A stretch of 64,000 nucleotides of DNA from Armatimonadota bacterium (GTDB lineage: Bacteria; Armatimonadota; HRBIN16), in contig OY781964.1 in NCBI GenBank assembly GCA_963677485.1, positions 2,434,980-2,498,979 of the forward strand. The letters are read 5' to 3'. Shown piece after piece: positions 5,187 through 62,845 of the stretch. The position numbers were made by a program, and so were the translations under genes. How positions within the stretch are numbered: the stretch's first letter is position 1; each line of letters begins with the position of its first letter. The notes under the pieces are model-generated. The model had not been told where the DNA came from, made no database searches, and saw only the letters and a program-made list of their open reading frames with translations.

Positions 5187-5282
5187 GGGTGGGATCCGGT
5201 TTGTGAAAAGCGACTGCTATGTACCGCTTGAAGAGGCGCATACCGGCCACCCGGTGAGCTAAAAGTAGACCAGAGCCTTCCT

Positions 5283-5486
5283 ATGGGCCGTGGCTGCATC
5301 GTGCGGCTGGACGACTCCGACATCCCCCACTGGAGCACCTCCATCGCGCAGGTACTGCGCCAGATGGCGGCCAGTCAGCCCGATCTGCACGGGGTGAACC
5401 CCAGGCAAGATGGCAAGTTCCGCACCCAGTTTTCCGATGGCTGGTTGAGTTTCGATCCGAAGACGGGCACGACGCGCTGGGAGTAA
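5283..5486 (+). pseudogene. Orphan C-terminal fragment (about 65 codons) paralogous to the C-terminus of the CDS at 7021-8712.
   Basis: The translation GRGCIVRLDDSDIPHWSTSIAQVLRQMAASQPDLHGVNPRQDGKFRTQFSDGWLSFDPKTGTTRWE aligns residue for residue with ...GRGRIVRLDDADIVRWSAAIAQMLRQMAAKQPELHGVNPKQDGKWRTQFTDRWLSYDPKTGKTRWE at the end of 7021-8712. No upstream coding continuation exists. Confidence 0.7.
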
Positions 5487-5695
5487 TCTCGATTCGCGGA
5501 TGATGCGGGTTTCTGGGGGCCTTCGGTCCAATCTGTCCGAACCGGCGGGAATGGTAACCTGCGAATGGATCCGACAGTAATATTACCTGTTTTTGGGCAT
5601 ACCGAGGTGTAAACGAAGTATCTATGAAGCTTATATGTGTTACGATTATAGACGATATCTAGTCTTTTTAGCGATCATATGTGGAGGGCCAACAA

Positions 5696-6942: not shown

Positions 6943-7020
6943 AGCCGATTCGCGATCGACCCCCTCCAAACCGTCGCGGTTGGCTGGAGTAGTGACAAGA
7001 TAATAAGGTGAGAATTTCGA

Positions 7021-8712
7021 ATGCCATATAACGCCGACAAGATGCACTTCGCCTCCGGCGTGTTGATGCTGCCCGATTTTCCGGGCTGTAACAACCGGGG
7101 CGTGATCACCGATCAGATGGTGCCCGGTCACGACCATGTGGAAGCCTACCTCTTCTGGCGGATGCTGGAGCCTCAGCAAGACCGGTGGCAATGGGATAAG
7201 GTCGACGAAATTTTGGAGCTGATGAAGCCCCGCGGCCAAAAGATGCTGGCCACCCCATGGTTGAACTACGCCCCCAAGTGGTTTGTGAACAGCGACCGTT
7301 ATGTGCCCCTCCAGGAGATGCACACCGGCAAGACCGTCGACCTGCTTTCCATCTGGGCTCCTGGCACCTGGTGGGTGTATGAGCACTTCTACAAGCAACT
7401 GGCAGCGAAATACGGCGATCAGATCGACATCATAAAGGTCAGCCTGCCCAGCTCCGACTTTGGCGAGGTGGGTTACCCCATGGGGGTGGCCGACTTCACC
7501 TCAGGTAGGATGTATGGTGAGCCGTTCCCGCAGTCCAAGGACGCCTGGCATATGGGCATGTGGTGCGGCGACCCGTATGCGGTGGCGAGCTTCCGCAAGG
7601 CGATGTCTCAGCCTTACCGCTCGCTGGGTGCTCTGAACAAGCTTTGGTGCACGAGCTACACGCACTGGGACCAACTGGAAATGATGCGGATAGAGGATCG
7701 CAAGCAGTGCACTCAGCGCTGGCTTGACCTAATGGCCTGGTACAACAACAGTCAGGTAGAGGCCACACGCAAGGCCATGAAGATCGTGCGAAAGTACTTC
7801 CCGAAAGCCTATCTGGAGGTACCGCTGGGTTACGGCTGCGATCTGCCGCAATACGGCTGCGACCGCACGGCTCTGTGCCGCGTGGTGGGCGAGTTCGGCA
7901 ACGCTGCCGTGCGCAGCACGCACGGCAGCTTCAACCGATGGGTTGTGCCTGCTGCATACTGGTTCTATAAGCGTATGGCACCGGTCTGCCACAGATACGG
8001 CGCAGGTTTTGGTACAGAGCCGCCCGGTGGAGACCTCACGCCAGCCGAGATGAAACGGCAGCTTTTTGAGGATGCCAGCGGAGGTGTGAATCTGCTGTAT
8101 AGTTATTATCAAAACTGGCACACGCTGCCGGATGTAGCCAAACAATGGAGCACCTTCTGCCGACCTTCGAAGCTCTCTATGGTCTCAGTGGGTGTGATCT
8201 ATTCCAACACTCAGATGGCCCTTGACCTCGCCGAATACCCCGTCGGGCAGTGGGAGCTGTTCGACGCACTTCGCCCCACAGTGGACATGGATGTGGTCGA
8301 TGAACACATGATGAGCTGGGGCTGGCTGTCGCAATACAAGCTGCTGATCAACACCAACGGCAAGACATATCCCAAAGAGTGCCTGAGCCTTCTGTGGAAG
8401 TGGCTGCAAAAAGGCGGGGTGCTGATCACCCGCGGCGGGTCAACGTTGTCGGACGTCGAGGGGCGCGCCTGGCCTATCGGGGAGCTGAATGTGGAACAGA
8501 GCGTCCCCGTGGGCCGTGGGCGCATCGTGCGGCTGGACGATGCAGATATTGTGCGTTGGAGTGCTGCCATCGCCCAGATGCTGCGGCAGATGGCCGCCAA
8601 ACAGCCAGAGCTACACGGCGTGAACCCCAAGCAGGACGGTAAATGGCGCACGCAGTTCACCGACCGATGGCTGAGCTACGACCCGAAGACGGGCAAAACC
8701 CGCTGGGAGTAG
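7021..8712 (+). CDS. Glycoside hydrolase, GH42-like (beta-galactosidase family) TIM-barrel protein.
   Basis: Motif YLFWRMLEPQQDRWQWDKVDEILELMKPRGQKMLATPWLNYAPKWF matches the GH42/GH35-type W..LEP..G.Y.W..D.V...P.W arrangement. GAGAA lies upstream of the ATG. Confidence 0.55.
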   Translation: MPYNADKMHFASGVLMLPDFPGCNNRGVITDQMVPGHDHVEAYLFWRMLEPQQDRWQWDKVDEILELMKPRGQKMLATPWLNYAPKWFVNSDRYVPLQEMHTGKTVDLLSIWAPGTWWVYEHFYKQLAAKYGDQIDIIKVSLPSSDFGEVGYPMGVADFTSGRMYGEPFPQSKDAWHMGMWCGDPYAVASFRKAMSQPYRSLGALNKLWCTSYTHWDQLEMMRIEDRKQCTQRWLDLMAWYNNSQVEATRKAMKIVRKYFPKAYLEVPLGYGCDLPQYGCDRTALCRVVGEFGNAAVRSTHGSFNRWVVPAAYWFYKRMAPVCHRYGAGFGTEPPGGDLTPAEMKRQLFEDASGGVNLLYSYYQNWHTLPDVAKQWSTFCRPSKLSMVSVGVIYSNTQMALDLAEYPVGQWELFDALRPTVDMDVVDEHMMSWGWLSQYKLLINTNGKTYPKECLSLLWKWLQKGGVLITRGGSTLSDVEGRAWPIGELNVEQSVPVGRGRIVRLDDADIVRWSAAIAQMLRQMAAKQPELHGVNPKQDGKWRTQFTDRWLSYDPKTGKTRWE

Positions 8713-8740
8713 GGGCCATTGGCGGGTTTGTGTCAAGCTT

Positions 8741-16792: not shown

Positions 16793-17150
16793 TGGATTGT
16801 CTGAACCACGGATTACGCGGATAATTCGGATGACACGGATGGGGAGGCGGGTTTGTCACGCGAAGACGCGAAGACGCGAAGGGGGTGGGGAGTGTGTCAC
16901 GCGTAGACGCGAAGACGCGAAGGGGAGGCGGGTTGGACGGATGCGAGGGCGCGAAGACGCGAAGGGGCAAGGCGGGTTGGATGTATGCGAGGGCGTGGCG
17001 GGTATGGTGCGTATGGCTACCCCTGGGAACGCCAATCTCCCGATTGGCATTTCCCTTCCCCATTCGCGTTCATTCGTGTTCATTCGCGGTTAAAATGAGC
17101 CAGCAACAGGTCGGGTAGGATGAGTAGGACGAGTAAGGTAAGGGTAGGGC
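16793..17150. repeat. Word-repeat island W3, the richest in the window. It contains CTGAACCACGGATTACGCGGAT, GTGTCACGCGAAGACGCGAAGACGCGAAGG x3, CATTCGCGTTCATTCGTGTTCATTCGCGGTT and GGTAGGATGAGTAGGACGAGTAAGG.
   Basis: Direct reading. The modules are shared with islands at 26425, 44183, 53463, 57714 and 62350. The ORFs called here (16728-17093 and others) are repeat artefacts. Confidence 0.85.
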
Positions 17151-24633: not shown

Positions 24634-24890
24634 CATGACCACATTGCCGCGACATAAATATCAGTCTATTACCCACAAATATTGCATGGCCAGTAGGTCA
24701 CCGATTCCGCGACATAAATGTCTCGGCTATTGAACACTAAGACTGCTGAAGCAGTCTTCATTAACGTTATCTATGTCGGCAAGGAGCTCCGCAGCCCGGT
24801 TTAGCGGGCTTGTTGATCAATAGCCGAGACATTTATGTCGCGGCACATGGTCGAAACGATCCCAACTGGATTTGTGGGTAATAAACTGGG
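24634..24890. repeat. Nested palindromic element. It has 27-bp perfect inverted arms CCGCGACATAAATGTCTCGGCTATTGA, an outer TTACCCACAAAT/ATTTGTGGGTAA pair, inner hairpins AAGACTGCTGAAGCAGTCTT and AGCCCGGTTTAGCGGGCT, and a third variant copy of the arm.
   Basis: Seen directly in sequence. It sits about 300 bp upstream of dinB. Confidence 0.8.
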
Positions 24891-24970: not shown

Positions 24971-25044
24971 CAGTCTTCCTGGCTAACCGCCAGAACGGCG
25001 CGGTCATGAGCTTTCTGCTGCCGCTAGCCTGCGCACAGACCGCC
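24971..25044. repeat. REP/MITE-like element, partial right half (...AGAACGGCGCGGTCATGAG...CAGACCGCCCCGGACATGG).
   Basis: Matches the right inverted repeat and the inner right arm of the family. Confidence 0.7.
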
Positions 25045-25090
25045 CCGGACATGGCCAATTGGGCTGCGGTGGTCATCACCCAATCTGCGT

Positions 25091-31141: not shown

Positions 31142-31530
31142 TATTTGCTCCTTTGTTGGGCGTTTTGAAGTCTCCTACGCGTCCGCTCATACGGTGTCCT
31201 CGACTTTCTTGTCAAGTTGCGGACCTGCTACCCGGCCTTTTTCTCTTTCCGTTTTACCAAACTTGCCGGGTTGCTTGCTACTCGAGGTAACCGCTTCGGC
31301 TACCCGATTCGCCGGTAATGAGAACTTGCCAGGATAGTTCTGGTATTCAGTTTACCTGCTATCTTATAGCGGGCTTGGTATCAACTGAACTATATTAGTA
31401 ATACCCGGTCCTGACAGCTTGAATCTTCTTTTTATGCCCAATTACATAAGTATTATTACTAGTTTTTTGGTATCACTTGACACTACACAGTATTGCAAGG
31501 TTATTCTTTGGTAGCTACTCAGACATTAAT

Positions 31531-31693
31531 GGCTATGTCCGGGGCGGTCTGTGCGTAGGCTAGCGGATGCAGAAGGCTCAAGACCGCGCCGGTCTGGCGG
31601 TTAGCCCTAAAAGATTTTTGTCGGGAACAAGACCGGCGCGGTCTATAGACTGTGGCCACCGCAGGCGTACTGACAGACCGCCCCGGACATTGG
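31531..31693. repeat. REP/MITE-like element, full unit in inverted arrangement.
   Basis: GGCTATGTCCGGGGCGGTCT...CAAGACCGCGCCGGTCTGGCGG...AAGACCGGCGCGGTCT...CAGACCGCCCCGGACATTGG. Confidence 0.8.
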
Positions 31694-31718
31694 TAAACCA
31701 GTGAGTTCAAGGGAAATC

Positions 31719-38956: not shown

Positions 38957-39049
38957 GTAATGCCCATAGATGGGCAGGTTCAATTTGCTGTCTGTCCAGG
39001 CAGCAATGATTACTTCGCTGCTAAGGCAAAGGGCTTGATCTATTCCATT

Positions 39050-39142
39050 TTGTGGACATCAGTGGTAAAGCGGAACAGGTAGGCGTGGAAGCTGTCGTCG
39101 CCTTTCCATTTCATGACACAGGTGTCGCCGCCAAACTTCACC
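39050..39142 (-). pseudogene. Orphan fragment homologous to the C-terminal segment of the secreted GH-like protein at 42341-44071.
   Basis: Minus-strand translation VKFGGDTCVMKWKGDDSFHAYLFRFTTDVHK matches KFGGDTCVVKWKTDDSFHTYLFRFTADAKK. Nucleotide similarity to 42450-42545 is visible by eye. No upstream ORF exists. Confidence 0.65.
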
Positions 39143-42340: not shown

Positions 42341-44071
42341 CTACCTGGCTGCTTTTGCGAAGACCTTGATCCACTCGATCTCTATCTTCGTGCCTGGGGT
42401 ATCGGGGAAGTCCGCCCGGATGTTCTTCAGCATCTCGTCTTTTTTGGCGTCGGCGGTGAAACGGAACAGGTAGGTGTGGAAGCTGTCGTCAGTCTTCCAT
42501 TTCACGACACAGGTGTCACCCCCAAACTTCATCTTGTCCGTCTCCCAGAAGAAGTTTCCCTTATCGGATTCGCCAGCATTATTGATACGAACCCGTATGG
42601 CGATGCCCTCAATGTTGGATATCGGCCCCCAGTTGCCCGGGATGATCATGAAGGGGTCTCCGTTGGTGACGGTCATCACGGCTTTGCCACCGATCAGCTC
42701 CGGACCGCTCATATTAGCGATACCCAAATTGGTCCGTAGCTGGCCGGCTGGCCACTCAGATATGGCGTTCTTGGGCAGTTCCGCAGGGTCGACTACATAG
42801 GCAACACTCTTGTTGGCGACAAATACCGGTGATGGTGGGCCAGCTTCAACCTTCACCGCCGCCGCGAGCTGCTCATCGTCAAGCACGCTGTATGACCGGA
42901 CCTGCTCAGGGGTGGGACGGGCCCACTTGTTAGGGCCTTTGTTACCAAACACCCGGCGGACCGCATCGAGGTGCGAAAAGCCGAACTCCTTAGATGGCTC
43001 CAGGTGTGATCCCTCTCCCCACTCATTCCAGGCCTCGATCATGAAGTATGGGAACTCGGGTTTGACTAGTGCTTTTCCGTTGCGCAGCATCTGCTCGAAC
43101 AGCGCGGGCGTCCAGCCGGTGCGCACCCAGTTCGGCTGACCACCAGGAAGCGTCCGAGGGCTGTCGTCCCAACCCGCCTGCGCTCCCACGATGAACGGCT
43201 TCTTCTTGCCCAGCATCTTTTGCCAGATCGGCTTTACCCCTTCCACAATCTCCGAGTAGGGGGCTGAGCCGGGGAAGGTCCAGTAGGAGTCCGTCAGCAC
43301 CCAGTGGTAGCTATAAGAGGTGAACGCATCGCCGACAGGCACATCCGCGACCAGGCTGGGCTCGTTGTTGTCCCAAACAAGGAAGAGATCACCCAGACCA
43401 CGCGCCCGGCAGAGCGCATTCAATCGCGGCAGCACCTTGAGCTGGAACTTATCCGCCCCGCCGCATGCTGCCAGAATCGGCTTGATGTCCAGGATCATAA
43501 ACACAGGTCGGCCCTTGATCTTGAGGTAGTTCGGGCGGACGAAGTAGTTGTCCACGCAGTATTTGATCATCGCTTCCAGCGCGTCAGGGTCAAATACGAA
43601 CGTCCGCTTATAGTCAAGTCCGTGATTACACCAGTTGATGCAGAACTGCATCTGCTCGTTGTAGCGGGCGTTCAGGAACCCCTTCTCCAGACTTCTAGCC
43701 AGCCGCTTCTCGCCGTCACTATAATACCAGTCGAAAGCAAACCAGCTAATACCCGCCTCAAGCGCCCACTTGATGTGCCAGTCGTTCACCTCGGGCATCG
43801 AGTCGTCGTAGAAACTCAGCACCGGCCGCGGTTTTGGCAGCTTCGCGATAGCGGACATCCACTCACTCTGCTCATCGAAGGTCGGATATGGGTAGTCATT
43901 GGTGCCGGCTTTGCGGTACCAGCCAGGGAAAATGTAGGTTCCCACCTTGATGCTGGTTTCCACCGGTTTTGGCGGCGGCACCGGATAGGCAGTATCGGCA
44001 CGTGTGATGACAGACACCCCCAGCATAAATCCCATCATACAAATCAGCAGCAGAGTTGTTGTTCTATCCAT
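42341..44071 (-). CDS. Secreted TIM-barrel glycoside-hydrolase-like protein (GHL / GH99 / GH71-like; family unassigned) with a C-terminal beta-sandwich module.
   Basis: Signal peptide MDRTTTLLLICMMGFMLGVSVITRA. Core SFYDDSMPEVNDWHIKWALEAGISWFAFDWYY. The C-terminal module is duplicated as a fragment at 39050-39142. Confidence 0.6.
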   Translation of the reverse strand: MDRTTTLLLICMMGFMLGVSVITRADTAYPVPPPKPVETSIKVGTYIFPGWYRKAGTNDYPYPTFDEQSEWMSAIAKLPKPRPVLSFYDDSMPEVNDWHIKWALEAGISWFAFDWYYSDGEKRLARSLEKGFLNARYNEQMQFCINWCNHGLDYKRTFVFDPDALEAMIKYCVDNYFVRPNYLKIKGRPVFMILDIKPILAACGGADKFQLKVLPRLNALCRARGLGDLFLVWDNNEPSLVADVPVGDAFTSYSYHWVLTDSYWTFPGSAPYSEIVEGVKPIWQKMLGKKKPFIVGAQAGWDDSPRTLPGGQPNWVRTGWTPALFEQMLRNGKALVKPEFPYFMIEAWNEWGEGSHLEPSKEFGFSHLDAVRRVFGNKGPNKWARPTPEQVRSYSVLDDEQLAAAVKVEAGPPSPVFVANKSVAYVVDPAELPKNAISEWPAGQLRTNLGIANMSGPELIGGKAVMTVTNGDPFMIIPGNWGPISNIEGIAIRVRINNAGESDKGNFFWETDKMKFGGDTCVVKWKTDDSFHTYLFRFTADAKKDEMLKNIRADFPDTPGTKIEIEWIKVFAKAAR

Positions 44072-48645: not shown

Positions 48646-49300
48646 GACCGGGGCGGTCTCGGTTGCCTATGTCCGGGGCGGTTTTCCCTAACCACGCCGG
48701 CCTTGATCCATGCGTGACGAGGGATTTACGGCTAACCGCCAGACCGGCGCGGTCTTGAGTCTTCTGTAGCCGCGAGCCTCCTGTCAGACCGCCCCGGACA
48801 TAGGCAATGATTGCTTCTCGATATTATGGCCAGCGTCCGGGGCGGTTTCTCCTAACCGCGCCGGTCTTGATCTATGCGTGACGAGGGATTTACGGCTATC
48901 CGCCAGACCGGCGCGGTCTTGAGCTTTCTGTAGCCGCCAGCCTCCTGTCAGACCGCCCCGGACATAGGCAATGATTACTTCTTGATATTATTGCCAGAGT
49001 CCGGGCGGTTTTCTCCTAACCGCGCCGGTCTTGATCTATGCGTGACGAGGGATTTACGGCTATCCGCCAGACCGGCGCGGTCTTGAGATTTCTGCAACCG
49101 CAAGCCGCCTGTCAGACCGCCCGGACATAGGCAATGGTAGCTTCTCAATATTATGGCCAGAGTCCGGGGCGGTTTTCCCTAACCGCGCCGGTCTTGATCT
49201 ATACGTGACGAGGGATTAACGGCTATCCGCCAGACCGGCGCGGTCTTGAGCCTTCAGTAGCCTCGAGCCACCTGTCAGACCGCCCCGGACATAGGCAATG
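48646..49300. repeat. Tandem array of four REP/MITE-like units of about 160-165 bp. Each has inverted repeats GTCCGGGGCGGT...AGACCGCCCCGGACATAGG and inner arms ACCGCGCCGGTCT...AGACCGGCGCGGT.
   Basis: Four head-to-tail copies are directly visible with scattered point differences. The array fills the whole gap between two convergent GH genes. Confidence 0.9.
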
Positions 49301-49328
49301 GTAGCACCAGCAATCCGCAGAATCTCCC

Positions 49329-52300
49329 CTACGGCAGCCTGACATCCGTGTAGCTGCCGACGCTCAACTTCGCGCTGGCGGCACTAAGGTGGACGCGCAT
49401 GGCGCCCTTGAACGGCTTATACACCAGCTTCTCGACATCATAAAGAACAGGCAGTTTGGCGGTGGGGATGGTGGCCCGGTAGGCCCCGTCCTTACCCAGC
49501 GGGATGTCCTGCCAGATGTCCTCACTGGGCACAAACTCCGCGCGGATGCTGGCTGGTGTGAGCGGTTTGCCGCTGATTTCGTAGAGCCTGGCGGCGATCT
49601 GCAGACCGCTTTTCGAAGCCGTGACGCTGGTGCGCATACCCATCTGGCCCATCAAACGGCGGGCATGGGCGATAGCCTTCACATGGTCGCCTTCAGACTG
49701 CGCGGTGTTCATGGCCTCCAGCTCATACTGACTGGCCGCGGTGAGGGCTTTCAGGCCTTTCCAGCGTGCGGCGACAGTTTTAGCCTGCGCCACGGCGGCC
49801 TGAGCTTCTTGCTGTGTGCTCTTCTGCATGAACTGCACGTAGCATTTGCCGTTAGCCTCCATCGAGACCGTGCCGCTGAAGCCTTGCCCGCTCCAACTGT
49901 CGCTGGCTACAGCAGCACTGCTCTCATACCGCGACTCCACCAACCCGAACCTCTGTGCCAGAGGGCGCAAATCCACATCCATCTTGACCGACTGGTTGCT
50001 AGTGTTGATGAACACCACAAACATATTCATGCCATCGCTGAGGGCCATCGTCTCCAGCCGCTGTCGTGCAGGAACATCCAACATGTAGCTGGCTTGAAGC
50101 AGTCTGGTACCCGGAACAGGCTGGTCGTTCAAGTAAGCCTGGCTGCCCTCGACCGCGTTTTTGGGGTCGCTCCACCAGCCCAGGTGCAGGTCCGGAGTGC
50201 CCTTGTCTGCCGTCATGCGCACATAAACTGTGGCATTAGCCGGCGGTGATTTTTGCAGGGTGAGGGTGTAGTTGGCACCATCGGTGAGAGGGGCGTCGAT
50301 ATGCTTGCTTCCCAGCAGCTCACCGGATGGGCTGTCGATGAACGCCTCCAGCGTCAGCCCATACTCATGCTTTTTCGTATAGGTAGGCACGTTGATGGAG
50401 ATGGAGGTCAGGCCCTCTGCGAATGTTTTGATGGTCTGACCCAGACTGAGACCGTCGACCACCTGATGGGCATCCCGCGGGCCGTTGAAGTTGCCGTTGC
50501 TCCAAGTGGTGGGCTGCTTGGCCATGTCGCTATTGTTGACAAGCACCGTGCGCAAGCTGTCGGGCAGTTGGCTGGCCGCATCGAACACGCTAGTGCTGGC
50601 TATCCGTCGGATTTCGCCTTTGCCCACGCGCTCTGACGCCGGGCCAGGTGTATCGGTGATGAGTATACCGCCCTGCTGTACATACTCATCGAGCTTGGTC
50701 TGCACGTCGGGCTCGATCAGTGAGTTGCCCAGGCTGATGAGGTATTCATAGCCTTTGGCCTCACCTTTGCGCAGCAGATTGTCTGAAAGATAGTATTTGG
50801 CGATCTGGTTTTGTATACAAGAGATGTGTATCTCGTCCCACTTGGGTTGATACCCACGCAGTGCCCAGGTCGGGTGCGAGCGGTAAACCGCCACCGAGGG
50901 CGTCACGGGGTGCATCCCCTCCAGCACGGGTGAAAGCAGCTTCAACTCCATAAACAGCCGGTCGATAGCCTTCTCGCCTGGAGTGCCGCGCACGCCCCAC
51001 TCGCCATCGGGCAGGGTACCCGACCACTGCACCAATCCGAGGTGCCAGGCTCCGCTGCCAATGGTCTCGCTGATGTAGCGGGTGGCGGCTTGTGGGGTGA
51101 AACTGCGTCCTCCACCGCGGGCGGTGGGATCCGTAAACTTGTAGGCCAGCCGGTTGGGGCTGTAGGGCTTGCCAAACGGCAGCAGGGTTTCAATATACTG
51201 CATGTTGAAGTAGCTCGGGTCGTCGTCTATGATGATCTGACCCGTCTCCCAGCCGTCGCTGTTGGAGACGAACAGATCAGGCGACCACCCCATGCCCGCG
51301 TAGGTGTTGCCAGTGAATATCGTGCCGTGGTTGCAGGTAAAGGCGGGCTTGCTGAGGTCCACATCACGGAAAGCCTGGTAGAACTGTCCCGAATGTTCCG
51401 CCATCGCCACGAAGCGGAAGTCCAGCCAGTCTTTCCAACTCTGCTGCTCGCTGGGAGCACGAGGCGCGTCCAGCTTCTCCCAGCTTGGGTTTTGGCTGCT
51501 CCAGGCCTTGTTCAACGCCTCTAGTGTGCCGTATTTATGTTTTAACCAGGCGCGGAAGTGGTTCAGGCTGGTTGCGCTGTAGTCGGTCCATCTATTGGCA
51601 TCAAGATAGGTGTAGTAGAGGCTTTCACCGCCCATCAGCCAGTAGATGACATTCGGGAAATCGCTCAAGGCCTTGGCGTTGATTCGGCAAAACTGCCGTG
51701 AACCCAGCACAAATGCGGGGTGCTCTAGACCGTTGCAGGGCACCATGGTGCCGAACATCCCGCCTAAAATCGGCTGGTTATACTGGTCGAGTTGCACCGA
51801 TTCGGGGAACTTCTTCATAAACCATTCGGGCATATATGGGAAACCAGGGTTATTCCAGTTACCCAGATTCGCCACCACATATAGCCCCAATTTCGACATG
51901 ATGGTGGCTTGGTTTGGACCTAGCACCAAGCACTGATGCTTCTGATCTGAGGCGACCACATCCTGCCACTGACCATTAGCATGGATCTGAAGTTCAAAAT
52001 CGAAGTTGGCGTAGTTTCCACCATCGGAGCCTGCCTTCCCCTGGGAATAGGGGTTGTTCTCCCGTGCCCACCAGGCGACATAGCTGCCGGTTGGGCGTGA
52101 AAGAACCAGCTGGTATTTACCGGCGGACTGGGGCTTAAATCGGAACTCGGCATGTTGATTGTCTTTCAGATAGCTGCTCTGCCCTTTGGCCGCGTCGGCC
52201 CACGACTTGCCGTTCCACTTCTGAAGGCTCCAGTTGCATTGGCTGTTGGTGCTCATCATGGTGGCCAGGCAAGGGCCGATACCGTCAAAAGCAGCCGTAG

Positions 52301-52592
52301 CGGTGAATGACTGCCAGAGCTTGGTGGGGGCCATCACATTGCTGACCCCGCAGCCATACGGTGCAGAGGCATCTTGCGTCGGAGTCCACATGGCACCAAT
52401 CGAACCAGTATTGGCATTGGTCTTGGCCATTTCCGCCCAGTCTGCCTGCTGATCGACAAATGGATAGCCGTAATACTGAAGCGGCTGCTTCACTATGGGC
52501 TGCCATTCCGGTTTCAGCGAGGTGCTGATGGGACCAGCCATGGCCATTCCGCCAACGACTAGAGTGATACCGAGGTGTAGAATCCGACGCAT
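49329..52592 (-). CDS. Large secreted glycoside hydrolase with a GH42-like (beta-galactosidase-type) domain.
   Basis: Signal peptide. ...YSATSLNHFRAWLKHKYGTLEALNKAW matches the GH42 F..WL...YG....LN.AW motif. 1087 aa. Confidence 0.65.
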   Translation of the reverse strand: MRRILHLGITLVVGGMAMAGPISTSLKPEWQPIVKQPLQYYGYPFVDQQADWAEMAKTNANTGSIGAMWTPTQDASAPYGCGVSNVMAPTKLWQSFTATAAFDGIGPCLATMMSTNSQCNWSLQKWNGKSWADAAKGQSSYLKDNQHAEFRFKPQSAGKYQLVLSRPTGSYVAWWARENNPYSQGKAGSDGGNYANFDFELQIHANGQWQDVVASDQKHQCLVLGPNQATIMSKLGLYVVANLGNWNNPGFPYMPEWFMKKFPESVQLDQYNQPILGGMFGTMVPCNGLEHPAFVLGSRQFCRINAKALSDFPNVIYWLMGGESLYYTYLDANRWTDYSATSLNHFRAWLKHKYGTLEALNKAWSSQNPSWEKLDAPRAPSEQQSWKDWLDFRFVAMAEHSGQFYQAFRDVDLSKPAFTCNHGTIFTGNTYAGMGWSPDLFVSNSDGWETGQIIIDDDPSYFNMQYIETLLPFGKPYSPNRLAYKFTDPTARGGGRSFTPQAATRYISETIGSGAWHLGLVQWSGTLPDGEWGVRGTPGEKAIDRLFMELKLLSPVLEGMHPVTPSVAVYRSHPTWALRGYQPKWDEIHISCIQNQIAKYYLSDNLLRKGEAKGYEYLISLGNSLIEPDVQTKLDEYVQQGGILITDTPGPASERVGKGEIRRIASTSVFDAASQLPDSLRTVLVNNSDMAKQPTTWSNGNFNGPRDAHQVVDGLSLGQTIKTFAEGLTSISINVPTYTKKHEYGLTLEAFIDSPSGELLGSKHIDAPLTDGANYTLTLQKSPPANATVYVRMTADKGTPDLHLGWWSDPKNAVEGSQAYLNDQPVPGTRLLQASYMLDVPARQRLETMALSDGMNMFVVFINTSNQSVKMDVDLRPLAQRFGLVESRYESSAAVASDSWSGQGFSGTVSMEANGKCYVQFMQKSTQQEAQAAVAQAKTVAARWKGLKALTAASQYELEAMNTAQSEGDHVKAIAHARRLMGQMGMRTSVTASKSGLQIAARLYEISGKPLTPASIRAEFVPSEDIWQDIPLGKDGAYRATIPTAKLPVLYDVEKLVYKPFKGAMRVHLSAASAKLSVGSYTDVRLP

Positions 52593-52613
52593 ATGCTGTT
52601 CCTGTCCTTCCGA

Positions 52614-53351
52614 CTAGTAGCCGAGAGACTTCATGTAGTCGATGCACTCTTTAGCGACCTGCATCGGCTTGCCGTAGGTGTCGTCCTGTTCGATGATGAG
52701 GTATTCCACACCCTTGGTGGCCTCCAGTGCGAACAGAGCTGGCCAGTCGATGGTGCCGCTGCCCACGGAGATCATCTTGCCCTCAGTGTCCATATCTTTG
52801 ACGTGCAGCAAGGGCAGGCGACCTGCTCGCTTGTTGATGGCTCCTGCGATGTCCTGCCCGCCATGCTTGACCCAGAACAGGTCGAGTTCGGCGTTCAAGT
52901 CGGGCGCATTGGTGTAAAGAAGATCGAGACCGAGCTGACCTTCATAGGTGCCGAACTCAAAGCTGTGGTTGTGATAGCACAGGGTGATACCCAGCTTGGC
53001 CAGTTTTTCGGCTCCGGCTTGCATCATGGCCGCGGAGGCCTTCCATGCGGCCGCGTCGCTGCGCATCTCTTCAGGGATGTAAGCCACTGTGAAGTATTTT
53101 GCACCGAGTGTTTTGGCGTTGGCGGCGACGGTATCGCAGTCGGCCAGGTCGTTAGGACCGCCATGCATGGAGATGGCCTGCAGGCCGTGTTTTGCGAGTG
53201 TTTCGGCCAACTTTTCAATGGACAGGCCGTAGGTGCCGGCGGTCTCAACATACTTATAGCCCATTGCGGCCAAACCGGCCAGGGTGCCGTGTAGGTCGGC
53301 ATCGGCGGCGTCACGAACGGTATACAGTTGGATAGCGAGTTGCGGTTTCAT
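52614..53351 (-). CDS. Sugar phosphate isomerase/epimerase (xylose-isomerase-like TIM barrel).
   Basis: LAIQLYTVRD...GYKYVE...LCYHNHSFEF...LLHVKD is the AP-endonuclease 2 / xylose-isomerase-like TIM-barrel signature. Confidence 0.85.
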   Translation of the reverse strand: MKPQLAIQLYTVRDAADADLHGTLAGLAAMGYKYVETAGTYGLSIEKLAETLAKHGLQAISMHGGPNDLADCDTVAANAKTLGAKYFTVAYIPEEMRSDAAAWKASAAMMQAGAEKLAKLGITLCYHNHSFEFGTYEGQLGLDLLYTNAPDLNAELDLFWVKHGGQDIAGAINKRAGRLPLLHVKDMDTEGKMISVGSGTIDWPALFALEATKGVEYLIIEQDDTYGKPMQVAKECIDYMKSLGY

Positions 53352-53462
53352 CTAGTCACCTCAAAAGAGTATTATGTGCGATGCGTACACCTTCATATTA
53401 ACCAAGATGGGGGCTGGTTCCTCTATGTGGGCCCGATTTTAGAGCTGCGAAAACTACTCAGC

Positions 53463-53489
53463 CTCACGCGAAGACGCGAAGACGCGAAG
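53463..53489. repeat. Word-repeat island W7 (CACGCGAAGACGCGAAGACGCGAAGG).
   Basis: Identical to the octamer module in W3. Confidence 0.75.
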
Positions 53490-53551
53490 GTAATGACCGG
53501 CGCGGTTTAACGACATGGGCCGGTGTCGTGGACCGAAGCTGATCAGCTCAC

Positions 53552-54170
53552 GTTGCCGCGGGTTTAGTCACCCCATGAATGGGGTTCCCTCACCGCGCGT
53601 CTAGGTTATCGCAGCCCGCAAGCGGGCGCATGTTGCCCTCCGCCAGCGCCTGCAGGAGCGTAGCGACGCGGGCAGCCATCTAATCAGCGACGGGTGATGG
53701 AGCCCCCTGGGGCGATGGAACCCGTCGACACGGGACGGTCGTTGATATCGGAGGTGTTTAGCCCTCGCTGCCGCGGGTTTAGTCACCCCGTGAACGGGGT
53801 TCCCTCACCGCGCGTCTAGGTATTGGCAGCCCGTAATCGGGCGCATGGCCCTCCGCCAGCGCCCGCAGGAGCGAAGCGACGCGGGCAGCCATCTGATCAG
53901 CGACGGGTGATGGAGCCCCCTGGGGCGATGGAACCCGTCGACTCGGGGCCGCTCACCTATATCGCAGGCTACCAGCCTCGCTGCCGCGGGTTTAGTCACC
54001 CCATGAATGGGGTTCCTTCACCGCGCGTATAGGTATTTGCAGCCCGCAAGCGGGCGCATGGCCCTCCGCCAGCGCCCGCTGGAGCGAAGCCGACGCGGGC
54101 AGCCAACTGATCAGCGACGGGTGATGGAGCCCCCTGGGGCGATGGAACCTGTCGACACGGGCGTGTTGAC
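53552..54170. repeat. Tandem array of about 2.9 copies of a 216-bp unit rich in hairpins. Candidate structured ncRNA or satellite.
   Basis: Units start at 53552, 53768 and 53984 (period 216). The hairpin CACCCCATGAATGGGGT in units 1 and 3 reads CACCCCGTGAACGGGGT in unit 2; the A-T pair becomes G-C, a compensatory change. Other conserved hairpins: GCCCGCAAGCGGGC and GCCCCCTGGGGC. The small ORFs at 53601-54204 are repeat artefacts. Confidence 0.85.
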
Positions 54171-54234
54171 CCATGTCAAGGCAGGAGAGAAAAGGTATGG
54201 TCATAGCTACAAAATCCCTCCGCCGTCCGTTGCT

Positions 54235-55308
54235 CTACCAGCAGCTCTTCAGCAGCTCAATCATATACCGGAAGTTCTCAAACTTCGCGTCGGCAGGCAC
54301 GGCGTGGTCGACCGCCGGTATCCAGCCGCCCCGCGCATACAGCTCACAAGCCTTGGGCACGACCTCGTTCCACACATCCTGCCGGCTGCGTGACAACACC
54401 CGCTTGTCCAGACCGCCAAAGAACTTGAACTCGGGGAAGCGTCGGGCGTAGTCGAGCAGCGACTGCACCGAGGCGATCTCCACCGGACTGGTGCCTTCGA
54501 TACCCGCCTCAATCCAGAGCGGAATCAACTCCGAAATATGGCCGTCGCAATCCACAAACACCGTCTCGCAGCCCAGAGATCGGGCTTCCTGCACCAGTTC
54601 TTGGTATCTTGGCACAAGCTTTTGCCTGATGATGGCCGGGCTGACCATGCAGGCGGTCTTGTAGGCCATGTCTTCGCTGATCATCAAGTTGTCGATACGG
54701 GCCCCAGCCAGATGCGTACGCAGCAGCCGGATGTTAAAGTCCAGAACGAAGTCGAGCATCTCATCGATCAACTCAGGCTGGTCGATGAAGGCGATGGAGA
54801 GCCCCTCAAACCCCAGCCACTGCCGCATGGTCCAGTAGAAGCCCAGTATGGTGAACATGAACGGCCGGTCGCTCGTATGGCTGCGGGCGATGGCCTCATC
54901 GTAACCGGGGTATTGCCGCCCCAGGTCTTCGGGGTCATACCTCTGCGTCATCGCCAGGAAGTCCTGCCTGCTTTCCACAGGGAACTTCAGCCATTTGCGT
55001 GTGACGAACCCGGAGCCCTGCGCGTCGACTCCGTCGATGCGCAGCGCACCCTCTTCGTCATAGTAAGTGATGTGGCCGTCTTTCTGCTCCACTACCCGTT
55101 TTTCAAACTGCGGGTAGTGTGAGATCGCCACCGGGATACCGTCAAACTGGTCATACCCCAGCAGCTCCTCAGTGGATATACCCTCAGGATGCCCCTGCTT
55201 CAGCCACTCCTTCATGGTGGCGGGGCGTGTGGGGAACGTCCAGATGAATGGAGCATCGGGACGTTCGAATCGCATGATCTTGTGGAATCGCTCCCTGGGT
55301 GTCATCAT
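54235..55308 (-). CDS. Uroporphyrinogen decarboxylase (URO-D)-family protein, second paralog.
   Basis: 357 aa, the same length as 29116-30189. ...VFVDCDGHISELIPLWIEAGIEGTSPVE parallels ...VFYHTDGAAEALIPRLIDAGIDILNPIQ. Confidence 0.75.
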   Translation of the reverse strand: MMTPRERFHKIMRFERPDAPFIWTFPTRPATMKEWLKQGHPEGISTEELLGYDQFDGIPVAISHYPQFEKRVVEQKDGHITYYDEEGALRIDGVDAQGSGFVTRKWLKFPVESRQDFLAMTQRYDPEDLGRQYPGYDEAIARSHTSDRPFMFTILGFYWTMRQWLGFEGLSIAFIDQPELIDEMLDFVLDFNIRLLRTHLAGARIDNLMISEDMAYKTACMVSPAIIRQKLVPRYQELVQEARSLGCETVFVDCDGHISELIPLWIEAGIEGTSPVEIASVQSLLDYARRFPEFKFFGGLDKRVLSRSRQDVWNEVVPKACELYARGGWIPAVDHAVPADAKFENFRYMIELLKSCW

Positions 55309-56567: not shown

Positions 56568-57614
56568 TTAGCTTTTGTTGATAGCGACCGGTCCGGTGGA
56601 ACCCCTGACGACCAGTTCAGTTAGTATGGTATGTGAGTTGGATGGTAACTGTGGTTGGAGACGCAGGTTGCGAAGCACCAGCACCGCCAGCCTGGCGATT
56701 TCGGCAGGGTTGTCCTTCACTGTGGTCAGAGGTGGATCACAGTAGAGCCCCTCTTCTGTGGCACCCCAGCCGACGATGGACAGATCGTCCGGTATCCGCA
56801 GCCCCATGTTCTGAGCACCTCGGATGGCACCGATCGCCAACGGGTCGTTGACGGCGACCATGGCGGTGACATCCGGGCGGCGGGTTAGAAGTTGTTTCAC
56901 CGCCTCAATGCCTCCAGGGAATGAGGCTTCCGAGCTGGTCTGGATCAGTGCAGGATCGAATGCGATCCCCGCCAACGCCAGACCTTCGCAGTAACCTGCG
57001 TATTTGGCCACCGAGGTGGCTCCGGTTAGGTCCGCGCCGGGCAGGAAGGCGATCTTCCGATGTCCCAGTGCTGCGAGGTGCGACACGCTGTCACGGAAGG
57101 CTTGTATTCGGTCTGAGGTCACCGACAGGATATCGGCACCGCCGTAGGGGTAGAGGCTGACCAGCGGCGTTCCTGCTTGTTTGGCTTGCAGCATGTATTC
57201 CTGAGCGGCATCGAATGCATCCCACATCATCAGTATCCCGAAAGGCTGCAGGTCGATGGCGCGCTGGAACATATCGACCGTCTCCTGGTGTGATCCGGCG
57301 ACGTAGACCGCCGTGGGCAGGTTGGCGATGGCGGAGTTGCGGGTCAGCTCCATGAACAGGTCCACCGTGCCGCCGCGGATGCGGGTGCCGGAGACGACGA
57401 TGATGATCATGTCCAGATATCCGCGCTTCAGCGCCGCGCCGATGACATCCAGCTTATAGCCCATCGCGGCGGCGGTTTCCAGGATTCGGGTCCGCACCGA
57501 ATCCGATATGCGCGAACTTTTCTTGCCAGAGAGCACATACTGCGCACTGGCGTAGGACACCTCGGCCGCATCTGCCACATCGCGGATTCGGACCTTTCGG
57601 CCGGCTTCAGCCAT
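56568..57614 (-). CDS. LacI-family transcriptional regulator.
   Basis: VRIRDVADAAEVSYASAQYVLSG helix-turn-helix, followed by a periplasmic-binding-protein-like sugar-binding domain. Confidence 0.88.
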   Translation of the reverse strand: MAEAGRKVRIRDVADAAEVSYASAQYVLSGKKSSRISDSVRTRILETAAAMGYKLDVIGAALKRGYLDMIIIVVSGTRIRGGTVDLFMELTRNSAIANLPTAVYVAGSHQETVDMFQRAIDLQPFGILMMWDAFDAAQEYMLQAKQAGTPLVSLYPYGGADILSVTSDRIQAFRDSVSHLAALGHRKIAFLPGADLTGATSVAKYAGYCEGLALAGIAFDPALIQTSSEASFPGGIEAVKQLLTRRPDVTAMVAVNDPLAIGAIRGAQNMGLRIPDDLSIVGWGATEEGLYCDPPLTTVKDNPAEIARLAVLVLRNLRLQPQLPSNSHTILTELVVRGSTGPVAINKS

Positions 57615-57713: not shown

Positions 57714-58071
57714 GGGGCTGAACCGCGGATGGACGCAGATAGACGCGGATGGGGAGGAGTATCTGAACCACGGATTACGCGGATGACACGGATGGGTTCG
57801 GATGGAGAGGGAGTGCCTACACCACGGATGGACGCAGATAGACGCCGATGGGGGAGTGTCTGAACCGCGGCTTACGCGGATGACACGGATGGGTTCGGAT
57901 GGAGAGGGAGTGTCTATTCTACGGATGGACACGGATGGACACGGATGGACACCGATGGGTTCGGATGGGAGGTGCATCATCAACCACTATACACAGTTAC
58001 TTATCCTCTATGGTTCAGATGCTCCCTCTCCATCTGTGTCATCATGAAAATCCGTGTAATCCGTGGTTCAG
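57714..58071. repeat. Word-repeat island W8 (CTGAACCGCGGATGGACGCAGATAGACGCGGATGG, CTGAACCACGGATTACGCGGATGACACGGATGGGTTCGGATGG x2, ACGGATGGACACGGATGGACACGGATGGACACCGATGG...AATCCGTGTAATCCGTGGTTCAG).
   Basis: Direct reading with 10-bp periodicity. It ends with a reverse-complement copy of the GAACCACGGATTAC module. Confidence 0.85.
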
Positions 58072-62349: not shown

Positions 62350-62845
62350 TCCTCCGGATGGCCTCACGCGGAGAGCGCGAAGGGGAAGGACCATCCACAG
62401 ATTACGCAGATTACGCAGATTACGCAGATTGGCTGAACCGCGGATAGACGCAGATGAACGCGGATGGGACATCTCATGACCGGGGCGGTCATGCAGTAAC
62501 CTGGCGGCACCAGAAAGCTCAAGACCGTGCGGGTCTTTTGTTTGAACCACGAATGAACACAGATAGACACGAATGGACGCAGATGAACGCGGGTGATCGA
62601 ACCACAACGTATAAGCTATTGGCCAAACCGTAGTTAACGCCAGACACACAGTGCGTAGTCACATACCTCCGCGCCTTTGCTTCTTGGCGTCTTTGCGTTG
62701 AATCCCGATTCTACCATCCATGTCATCCGATCCATCTGCGTTCATCTGCGTCTATCCGCGGTTAAGACAATCTGCGTAGTCTGTGTAATCTGTGGATGAA
62801 TCCTCCCCCTCCGCGTCCTCCGCGTCTCTGCGTGAGACACACCCA
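62350..62845. repeat. Word-repeat island W9 (GATTACGCAGATTACGCAGATTACGCAGATTGG; CTGAACCGCGGATAGACGCAGATGAACGCGGATGG; GAACCACGAATGAACACAGATAGACACGAATGGACGCAGATGAACGCGGGTG; CCATCTGCGTTCATCTGCGTCTATCCGCGGTTAAG; AATCTGCGTAGTCTGTGTAATCTGTGGATG; CTCCGCGTCCTCCGCGTCTCTGCGTGAGAC).
   Basis: Direct reading. Copies in both orientations occur within one island. The ORFs at 62275-62649 and 62364-62570 are artefacts. Confidence 0.85.
62476..62543 (+). terminator. Hairpin pair inside W9: the palindrome CATGACCG-GGG-CGGTCATG, and the terminator-like AAGACCGTGCGGGTCTT followed by TTGTTT.
   Basis: Seen directly. The stems reuse the REP-family cores (GACCGGGGCGGTC, AGACCG..CGGTCTT). Confidence 0.45.

Follow-up and report, generated by a model that had tools for sequence, protein, structure and literature searches.

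The 64,000 nt window analysed here (contig OY781964.1 of assembly GCA_963677485.1, an Armatimonadota bacterium, positions 2,434,980 to 2,498,979 of the forward strand) carries three head-to-tail copies of a hairpin-rich unit in an 884 bp spacer between two minus-strand genes. Judging from sequence comparisons with related genomes, we put the probability at roughly 75% that this triplet is one allele, with three units, of an array variable in tandem copy number, built from a lineage-specific, non-coding, multi-palindromic intergenic repeat, and not a dedicated array of small RNA (sRNA) genes. The spacer should not be annotated as an sRNA or riboregulator locus. The repeat family, large-unit, palindromic and tandemly variable, was previously undescribed in the poorly studied Armatimonadota.

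Tandem Repeats Finder (TRF) placed the array at 53554-54161 (period 213, 2.8 copies, 89% matches, score 968). The original prediction, made from the letters of the window, had proposed three copies starting at 53552, 53768 and 53984, with a period of 216 bp and a last copy of about 190 bp. Three head-to-tail copies are indeed present, but the family profile places their starts at 53553, 53768 and 53981, 1-3 nt away from those proposed, with periods of 215 and then 213 nt and a third unit of about 197 nt. A MAFFT alignment gave a mean column identity of 90% among the three copies, the same value as had been estimated. The main hairpin (hairpin 1), described as closed by A...T in copies 1 and 3 and by G...C in copy 2, was matched exactly as quoted, and the two further hairpins were also found in the copy alignment: GCCCGCAAGCGGGC of copies 1 and 3 is replaced by GCCCGTAATCGGGC in copy 2, while GCCCCCTGGGGC is identical in all three. 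The unit carries an invariant 50 nt block, GATCAGCGACGGGTGATGGAGCCCCCTGGGGCGATGGAACCCGTCGAC, and its conserved 20-28-mers had no chance matches in shuffled versions of the window. All three copies are of a short form, without the 16 nt inner hairpin GGGAC-TGGC-GTCCC that is nested in hairpin 1 of the full module, which accounts for their unit length of about 199 nt versus about 216 nt. The array stops after the third unit without the terminal partial unit found at many other arrays, and the same end is seen at the orthologous locus of a third genome (L036, see below). The entire period of 213-230 nt is homologous between copies, in agreement with the earlier statement that the array is not a CRISPR (clustered regularly interspaced short palindromic repeats) locus; no unique spacers occur in it, and a linker of about 30 nt is merely more variable and can still be aligned among copies.

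A search for further copies had been suggested as a check. Only these three are present in the window, but the family is abundant in a related 5.3 Mb Armatimonadota chromosome, OW818647.1, in which the 20-mer GATGGAGCCCCCTGGGGCGA matches exactly at 36 sites. These are distributed over 30 stretches and both strands; most stand alone, with some doublets and triplets. A family profile was built from near-full-length copies and searched against the fetched stretches, giving 77 matches. In OW818647.1, 47 matches score at least 100 bits (full or half units) and fall into 39 arrays, making 40 arrays of 1-4 units each when the window array is included. Unit length ranges from 197 to 217 nt across the family, and the period is typically about 230 nt, made up of a 216 nt unit and a linker of about 14 nt. 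The short form occurs at several OW818647.1 loci as well, sometimes beside long-form units in one array. With gene contexts taken from a simple codon-usage gene caller, which reproduces the database calls in the window, 38 of the 40 arrays overlap no predicted gene; 20 lie between co-directional genes, 7 between convergent and 6 between divergent genes. A match of GATGGAGCCCCCTGGGGCGA in a metagenome-assembled genome (MAG) of the Bacillota is a lone 28 nt stretch and was set aside as a chance match, and a scan of JGI metagenomes found the unit start on one short contig only. The family had no match among viral contigs or among plasmid and phage records, and a plasmid, phage or viral origin of the unit was rejected on these grounds.

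Two loci could be compared between genomes, and at both the position of the array is retained while the number of units differs. In OW818647.1 the ortholog of the window locus (L026), with genes of 86-91% nucleotide identity, has one long-form unit versus the three short-form units of the window, and its spacer additionally contains a full copy of a hairpin module (D2, described below) and a palindromic element of about 190 nt, both missing from the window spacer. In the third genome (GCA_054606775.1, L036), the same locus carries one short-form unit as assembled. The second locus has one unit plus D2 in OW818647.1 (L013) and two units with no intact D2 in GCA_054606775.1 (L045). The unit numbers are thus 3, 1 and 1 at the window locus and 1 and 2 at the other, and the loci are occupied in every genome compared. 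Units are more alike within arrays than between them (identity 0.893 versus 0.843, permutation p<2e-4), and each copy in the window is closest to the other two. Conserved position, variable copy number and likeness within arrays together indicate an array of the variable-number tandem repeat (VNTR) type that has grown by local duplication. Some exchange of sequence between loci is hinted at by an inner-hairpin variant, CGGAC...GTCCG, which is present at four OW818647.1 loci including L013, while the ortholog of L013, L045, has the major form. A third, more distant relative (L047) was considered as an empty site and discarded, as it differs in synteny and has no unit, and so does not provide a clean comparison.

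The arrays are part of a larger modular arrangement with a recurrent order: a D2 hairpin, a tail, n units, a partial unit and then a further module. D2 is a hairpin module of about 85 nt, ending in ...GACCGCGCCGGTCTGGCGGATAGCC, that usually stands before arrays and abuts unit position ~180 (GAACCCGTCGAC...), from which the tail leads into the n units; this junction recurs at about 17 of 35 D2 copies. Boundary mapping identified unit position ~180 or ~221 as the usual start of arrays and solo elements, and many arrays terminate at position 21 (...CGGGTTTAGTCACCC), with recurrent modules such as ACACNACTCCGTTCCGGGAGCTGACGCTCC downstream. One locus (L016) has a composite form without any full unit. 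A degenerate copy of the unit tail and linker precedes the first unit at most arrays, that of the window included, where a BLAST match to the multimer consensus begins at 53541, in phase 219 of 229. The window array retains a 12 nt remnant of D2, the remainder being deleted relative to L026.

D2 itself (GACCGGCGCGGTCT...AGACCGCCCCGGAC) is scattered through the window in both orientations (1732-1894, 24979-25064 and 31525-31702). It also forms the core of a second tandem array at 48671-49305 (period 164 nt, 3.9 copies, 91% identity). The orthologous spacer is about 217 bp long in OW818647.1 versus about 670 bp in the window, indicating that the D2 array is variable in copy number as well.

Several families of dispersed bacterial repeats offer a comparison. 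Repetitive extragenic palindromic (REP) sequences consist of one palindrome of 20-40 nt, in many cases accompanied by a 5' GTAG and by a cognate RAYT transposase; they are located between genes, where transcription of them is passive. Mycobacterial interspersed repetitive units (MIRUs) are 40-100 bp long, and many contain small open reading frames (ORFs) coupled to the flanking genes. BOX and Correia modules measure 45-150 bp, the latter with clear terminal inverted repeats and a TA duplication, and both BOX and the neisserial intergenic mosaic elements (NIME)/Correia are modular and intergenic, with a fixed order of modules, an internal module of variable copy number and a stable predicted structure. 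By analogy, the Armatimonadota family probably consists of mosaic intergenic repeats confined to a small clade and comparable in kind to REP and bacterial interspersed mosaic elements (BIMEs), MIRU, NIME and BOX. The units resemble REP/BIME in being extragenic, high-copy, palindromic and capable of forming stem-loops, and in building mosaics with other short modules, but differ in their size (about 200-216 nt), in their palindromes (at least five per unit) and in being arranged head-to-tail instead of in alternating orientation. They also lack a GTAG-plus-hairpin sequence at their ends; a separate GTAG-hairpin family interrupts some units. As in MIRU, one family of units forms tandem arrays at about 40 dispersed intergenic loci, with position fixed and number variable; unlike MIRU, the unit is at least twice as long, strongly palindromic and without a conserved frame. 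With BOX, NIME and Correia it shares the fixed module order, the internal module of variable number and the intergenic location, but there is no sequence relationship, and array borders carry neither terminal inverted repeats nor duplications. A further likeness to REP lies in the relation to insertion sequences (IS): REP elements serve as insertion targets for specific IS elements (Tobes and Pareja 2006, PMC1525189), and in the present family an IS4/Tn5-family element targets GGTTTAGTCACC of the unit. The family forms mosaics with at least two other modules and offers a specific landing site to an IS4-family element.

The GTAG-hairpin family (GTAG plus a GC-rich hairpin, e.g., GTAGGGGCGAACGGCGTTCGCCCTA) is REP-like and either replaces the centre of a unit or flanks units (L007, L008, L021 and L028 of OW818647.1); a regular-expression search for it had no match in the window.

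If the VNTR interpretation is right, arrays would gain and lose units through slippage during replication or through unequal recombination, with some sequence exchange between loci. The hairpins would be a built-in property of the palindromic module, maintained at the level of DNA, RNA or both, and any effect on the cell would be expected to be of the REP type. Should read-through from the minus-strand URO-D family gene extend into the array, the 3' untranslated region of its transcript would acquire very stable stem-loops (about -98 kcal/mol for each unit), which could impede 3' exonucleases or be processed. On the practical side, such arrays break short-read assemblies, and short-read contigs with the URO-D gene stop 89-115 nt beyond it, as expected at a repeat. 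The arrays are potential strain-typing (VNTR) markers for uncultured hosts, and the family provides a natural system for studying how palindromic repeats spread and are tolerated.

Another way of explaining a repeat at some 40 intergenic sites on both strands is transposition. The unit would then be a non-autonomous transposon of the miniature inverted-repeat transposable element (MITE) type, with its arms acting as terminal inverted repeats for a transposase supplied in trans, and the tandem arrays would be secondary. The 5' arm does match the reverse complement of the 3' arm at 15 of 21 positions, counted on the consensus, and other elements in the same spacers differ in presence or absence between genomes. 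However, the borders of arrays and solo elements given above do not lie at the inverted arms, no target-site duplication was found at the mapped borders of the 40 arrays, and both compared orthologous loci are filled in all genomes. Among ten flanking proteins tested there was no transposase or recombinase, and the only linked IS uses the unit as its target and has unrelated ends. With borders off the arms, no target duplication, no cognate IS and both loci occupied, a classical MITE is disfavoured, and we regard this explanation as unlikely.

The IS in question has its specific insertion site at GGTTTAGTCACC, which lies in the 5' segment of the unit. Its transposase has 465 aa, with Tnp_DNA_bind, DDE_Tnp_1 and Dimer_Tnp_Tn5 domains, and its ends (CAGTCTATTACCCACAAATA; also given as CAGTCTATTACCCACAAATATC) are unrelated to those of the unit. 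Insertions occur in both orientations, with about 12 bp of unit sequence duplicated at the flanks. At two loci (L038 and L040), GGTTTAGTCACC is directly duplicated around the IS and the flanks reconstitute a normal array end, which identifies the unit as the target. The same two loci contradict a role of the unit start as a terminal repeat of the IS, a possibility raised by L035, where 47 nt inverted repeats include unit positions 3-22; L035 is probably a chimeric short-read assembly, or else an IS lying between inverted units. A non-autonomous relative with the same end occupies the same site at two OW818647.1 loci and at 24669-24843 of the window. No copy of the IS itself was seen on Armatimonadota contigs of Mb scale. 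A palindromic element resembling a MITE (CCGCGACATAAATGTCTCGGCTATTGA..., with a 51 nt inverted repeat) has an end, AGTCTATTACCCACAAATAT, as in the IS4-family element; it occurs elsewhere in the window and in the L026 spacer and is absent from the window array spacer, constituting a filled/empty polymorphism.

The original prediction took the A-T to G-C change in hairpin 1 as the classic signature of selection on RNA structure, and proposed a covariation analysis across homologs. In the alignment of family units, the positions closing hairpin 1 are A·C in 30 of 35 long-form units (A·A in four, A-T in one), while the eight short forms have A-T (five), G-C (two) or G·T (one). The closing pair exists just in the short form, and so becomes relevant only once the inner hairpin has been lost; from the ancestral A·C, a single substitution leads to either A-T or G-C, so that no double substitution is needed. 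One compensated pair among three tandem copies becomes weak evidence once the wider family is known. Across 36 units, two-sided changes were found at three pairs (local hairpin model) and two pairs (long-range model) of the 38-56 considered, no more than expected, as 124 of 500 and 150 of 500 shuffles, respectively, reach the observed count. Neither the signature nor the wider covariation check thus supports selection on RNA. Pairing is nevertheless retained in 96.5% (local) and 98.6% (long-range) of cells, against about 40% in slid controls, and the stems are conserved, in contrast to the variable loops and linkers.

The folding energy of a single unit is -99.9 kcal/mol on the plus strand (z -2.2) and -97.5 kcal/mol on the minus strand (z -2.7). 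For the 36 units, the plus-strand consensus from RNAalifold is a long hairpin with multiple branches (-74.3 kcal/mol, 56 pairs, 2 two-sided changes), and that of the minus strand is a different fold (-70.7 kcal/mol, 51 pairs, none). CCCC/GGGG and GCCCGC/GCGGGC motifs each occur four times per unit and can pair locally or crosswise, allowing several mutually exclusive structures. Departures from Watson-Crick pairing in the local hairpins comprise 12 G·T, 11 A·C and 9 others, i.e., without strand asymmetry. Each unit has four invariant G·T positions in its long-range arms, and long-range pairing is consequently possible on one strand only, usually that antisense to the flanking genes.

Several observations weigh against the VNTR interpretation. 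Where the flanking genes are co-directional, the unit is antisense to them in 15 cases, the window array among them, and sense in five, a bias that hints at an orientation-dependent effect not expected of a purely neutral repeat. Most of the excess of doubly changed cells is due to a single event, a C-G to T-A replacement at columns 120/136 in 10 units from four loci, which is a genuine compensated change and the sole consistent difference between those 10 units and the others. The CGGAC...GTCCG form of the inner hairpin, in four units, is a compensated indel. Such changes indicate some constraint on hairpins, which could act at the RNA level. The closing position of hairpin 1 is pairable in 8/8 short forms versus 1/35 long forms, a real hint of constraint on this small hairpin in units that are not independent, and one that a palindrome acting at the DNA level, or templated correction in a quasi-palindrome, would explain equally well. 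The VNTR interpretation also leaves the first spread of the family to about 40 sites unexplained, and part of its copy-number evidence is uncertain: GCA_054606775.1 is a short-read MAG, so the single unit of L036 could reflect a collapsed array.

These points bear most directly on the proposal that the units are functional structured RNAs, acting in cis in untranslated or intercistronic regions or as independent RNAs of about 200 nt, with hairpins selected as RNA. Highly conserved pairing with a few compensated changes (including the one G·T intermediate), stems kept while loops and linkers vary, folds somewhat more stable than shuffles, the 15:5 orientation bias, and long-range arms whose invariant G·U positions permit only one strand would all be consistent with it. 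But pair-level covariation is at the level of shuffles, the local hairpins have no asymmetry between G·U and A·C (12 versus 11), and the strand favouring long-range pairing is mostly antisense to the flanking genes, here too. The pairings are mutually exclusive, with a different consensus and no covarying pair on the minus strand, and copy number varies freely among close relatives. A consensus scan found no sigma-70-like promoter or intrinsic terminator within the array. The search for a known RNA that had been recommended gave no match either: at gathering score Rfam 15 had none in the window or in four long-form array loci, and a permissive scan of the region (E<=10) returned only two far sub-threshold snoRNA hits, and a known RNA family was rejected on this basis. 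Functional structured RNAs are, in our estimation, slightly less probable than a MITE. Among the three options originally listed, 'structured satellite' comes near the truth, whereas an amplified sRNA gene and a riboregulator repeated in a leader are unsupported, given the shuffle-level covariation, strand-symmetric mismatches, two alternative folds and the lack of promoter, terminator and Rfam matches.

The chromosomal distribution of the family is uneven. All 30 loci (L004-L034) lie within 0.19-3.52 Mb of the 5.32 Mb of OW818647.1, with 11 of them in 1.8-2.1 Mb, although these figures rest on the record as stored in the sequence collection, which may not be the whole chromosome. The family thus appears limited to about 60% of this chromosome. 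The longest arc without a locus spans 2.0 Mb (P=5e-5). The loci have their circular mean at 1.94 Mb, close to the point (~2.05 Mb) where the GC skew, corrected for gene strand, turns from negative to positive (permutation p=0.0005). By the usual polarity, this switch is probably the replication origin. All seven loci beyond 2.5 Mb are on the minus strand and those below 2.0 Mb have mixed orientations; replication strand was rejected as the cause of unit orientation, as there is no clean switch at the skew breakpoint.

Such a pattern might suggest lineage-specific structured modules of about 200 nt whose number per locus is tuned, either for an origin-centred function at the DNA level, in chromosome organisation or in a structure linked to replication, or as a new class of cis-acting structured RNA insulating neighbouring transcription units, but we consider this improbable. 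A shade more doubtful still are arrays that serve as clustered DNA-level binding or structural sites for chromosome organisation or replication. The clustering around the skew switch and the long invariant blocks, which are kept as sequence beyond what structure would require and include a 14-mer present as an invariant direct repeat of two forward copies, agree with such a role. The clustering is explained equally well by spread from a founder locus, from which it would also follow through local duplication and recombination; the 14-mer has no free-standing sites in the window, DnaA, ParB, GyrB, RpmH and MnmG motifs, as markers of an origin, were absent from the stretches examined, and copy number differs between relatives. 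The unit was also considered as four copies of a 14-mer protein-binding site, and this was dropped since the reversed copies (3-4 mismatches) are no better than shuffles.

A coding origin of the repeats, either as genes for small Arg-rich peptides or as what is left of a repetitive protein-coding gene, is scarcely credible: ORFs of 41-70 aa do overlap the units on both strands, but any given frame stays open across the unit in at most 4 of 36 copies, the lengths of the units are distributed evenly modulo 3 (11/13/12, pointing to frequent indels), database gene callers place no gene in the spacer, and an ATG with a ribosome-binding-site-like stretch at 54180-54198 is not conserved in L036, all in line with the non-coding nature originally claimed.

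Coordinates of the array, its surroundings and associated elements are collected in Table 1. The array begins 202 nt upstream of the start of the sugar-phosphate isomerase/epimerase gene and ends 57 nt downstream of the stop of the URO-D gene, to which the unit orientation used here is antisense; Pfam and NCBI names agree with both of the families between which it had been placed, and a related MAG has near-identical proteins to which NCBI gives the label Armatimonadota.

Table 1. Features of the repeat array, its spacer and flanking genes, and of associated mobile elements (window positions unless a locus is named).
Feature	Position	Strand	Basis
Sugar-phosphate isomerase/epimerase family gene (AP_endonuc_2)	52614-53351	-	ORF list; Pfam and NCBI name
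ACGCGAAG x3 micro-repeat in array spacer	53466-53489	+	TRF; kept in orthologs L026 and L036
D2 hairpin module remnant GACCGGCGCGGT, 12 nt	53495-53506	+	alignment with L026, which keeps full D2
Degenerate copy of unit tail/linker before first unit	53511-53552	+	flank alignment of 40 units; L026 alignment; BLAST
Repeat unit 1, short form, with linker	53553-53767	+	TRF; nhmmer profile 2-214, 197.7 bits; copy alignment
Hairpin 1 of unit 1, CACCCC-A-TGAA-T-GGGGT	53569-53585	+	pattern match
Repeat unit 2, short form, G-C variant of hairpin 1, with linker	53768-53980	+	nhmmer profile 1-216, 199.6 bits; copy alignment
Hairpin 1 of unit 2, G...C closing	53784-53800	+	pattern match
Repeat unit 3, short form	53981-54177	+	nhmmer profile 1-213, 188.4 bits; boundary mapping
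Hairpin 1 of unit 3, A...T closing	53997-54013	+	pattern match
URO-D family gene	54235-55308	-	ORF list; Pfam and NCBI name
IS4/Tn5-family IS copies	L035/L039 183-1820; L038; L040-L043; relative in L044
MITE-like palindromic element	24669-24843; L004 ~268; L030 ~2922; L026 ~6950-7140

The intergenic DNA of the window genome is unusually rich in repeats. Micro-repeats of 8-10 nt are numerous in the window, including ACGCGAAG (three copies), CACGGATGA, CAGATTACG, ACGGATGGAC and CCATCCGCGT, at positions that include 16858-16922, 57722-57958 and 62398-62466 as well as the array spacer. Several spacers carry them, and they build longer inverted pairs such as 62407-62467 with 62732-62792. The window also contains diverged direct repeats in two pairs, with members about 3.2-3.4 kb apart (5245-5499 with 8471-8725, 75% identity, and 39049-39140 with 42440-42531, 83% identity), which resemble paralogous gene segments and not intergenic repeats.

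Immediately upstream of the start codon of the isomerase/epimerase gene, 55 nt show 100% identity to the ortholog, while the genes are only 86-91% identical. The minus-strand leader of this gene (53352-53440) contains an imperfect palindrome, TGTGCGATGCGTACA, at 53375-53389, which was flagged as terminator-like by the signal scan and could serve as operator to a LacI-family regulator encoded nearby (56568-57614). In that case, the downstream genes would have their own promoter and the array would lie within the 3' region of the URO-D transcript. At sugar-utilisation loci, URO-D-family genes adjoin genes for GH42 beta-galactosidases, a pairing that recurs in at least three clusters related as paralogs or orthologs (49329-55308 of the window, L045 3001-6001 and L047 3001-7980).

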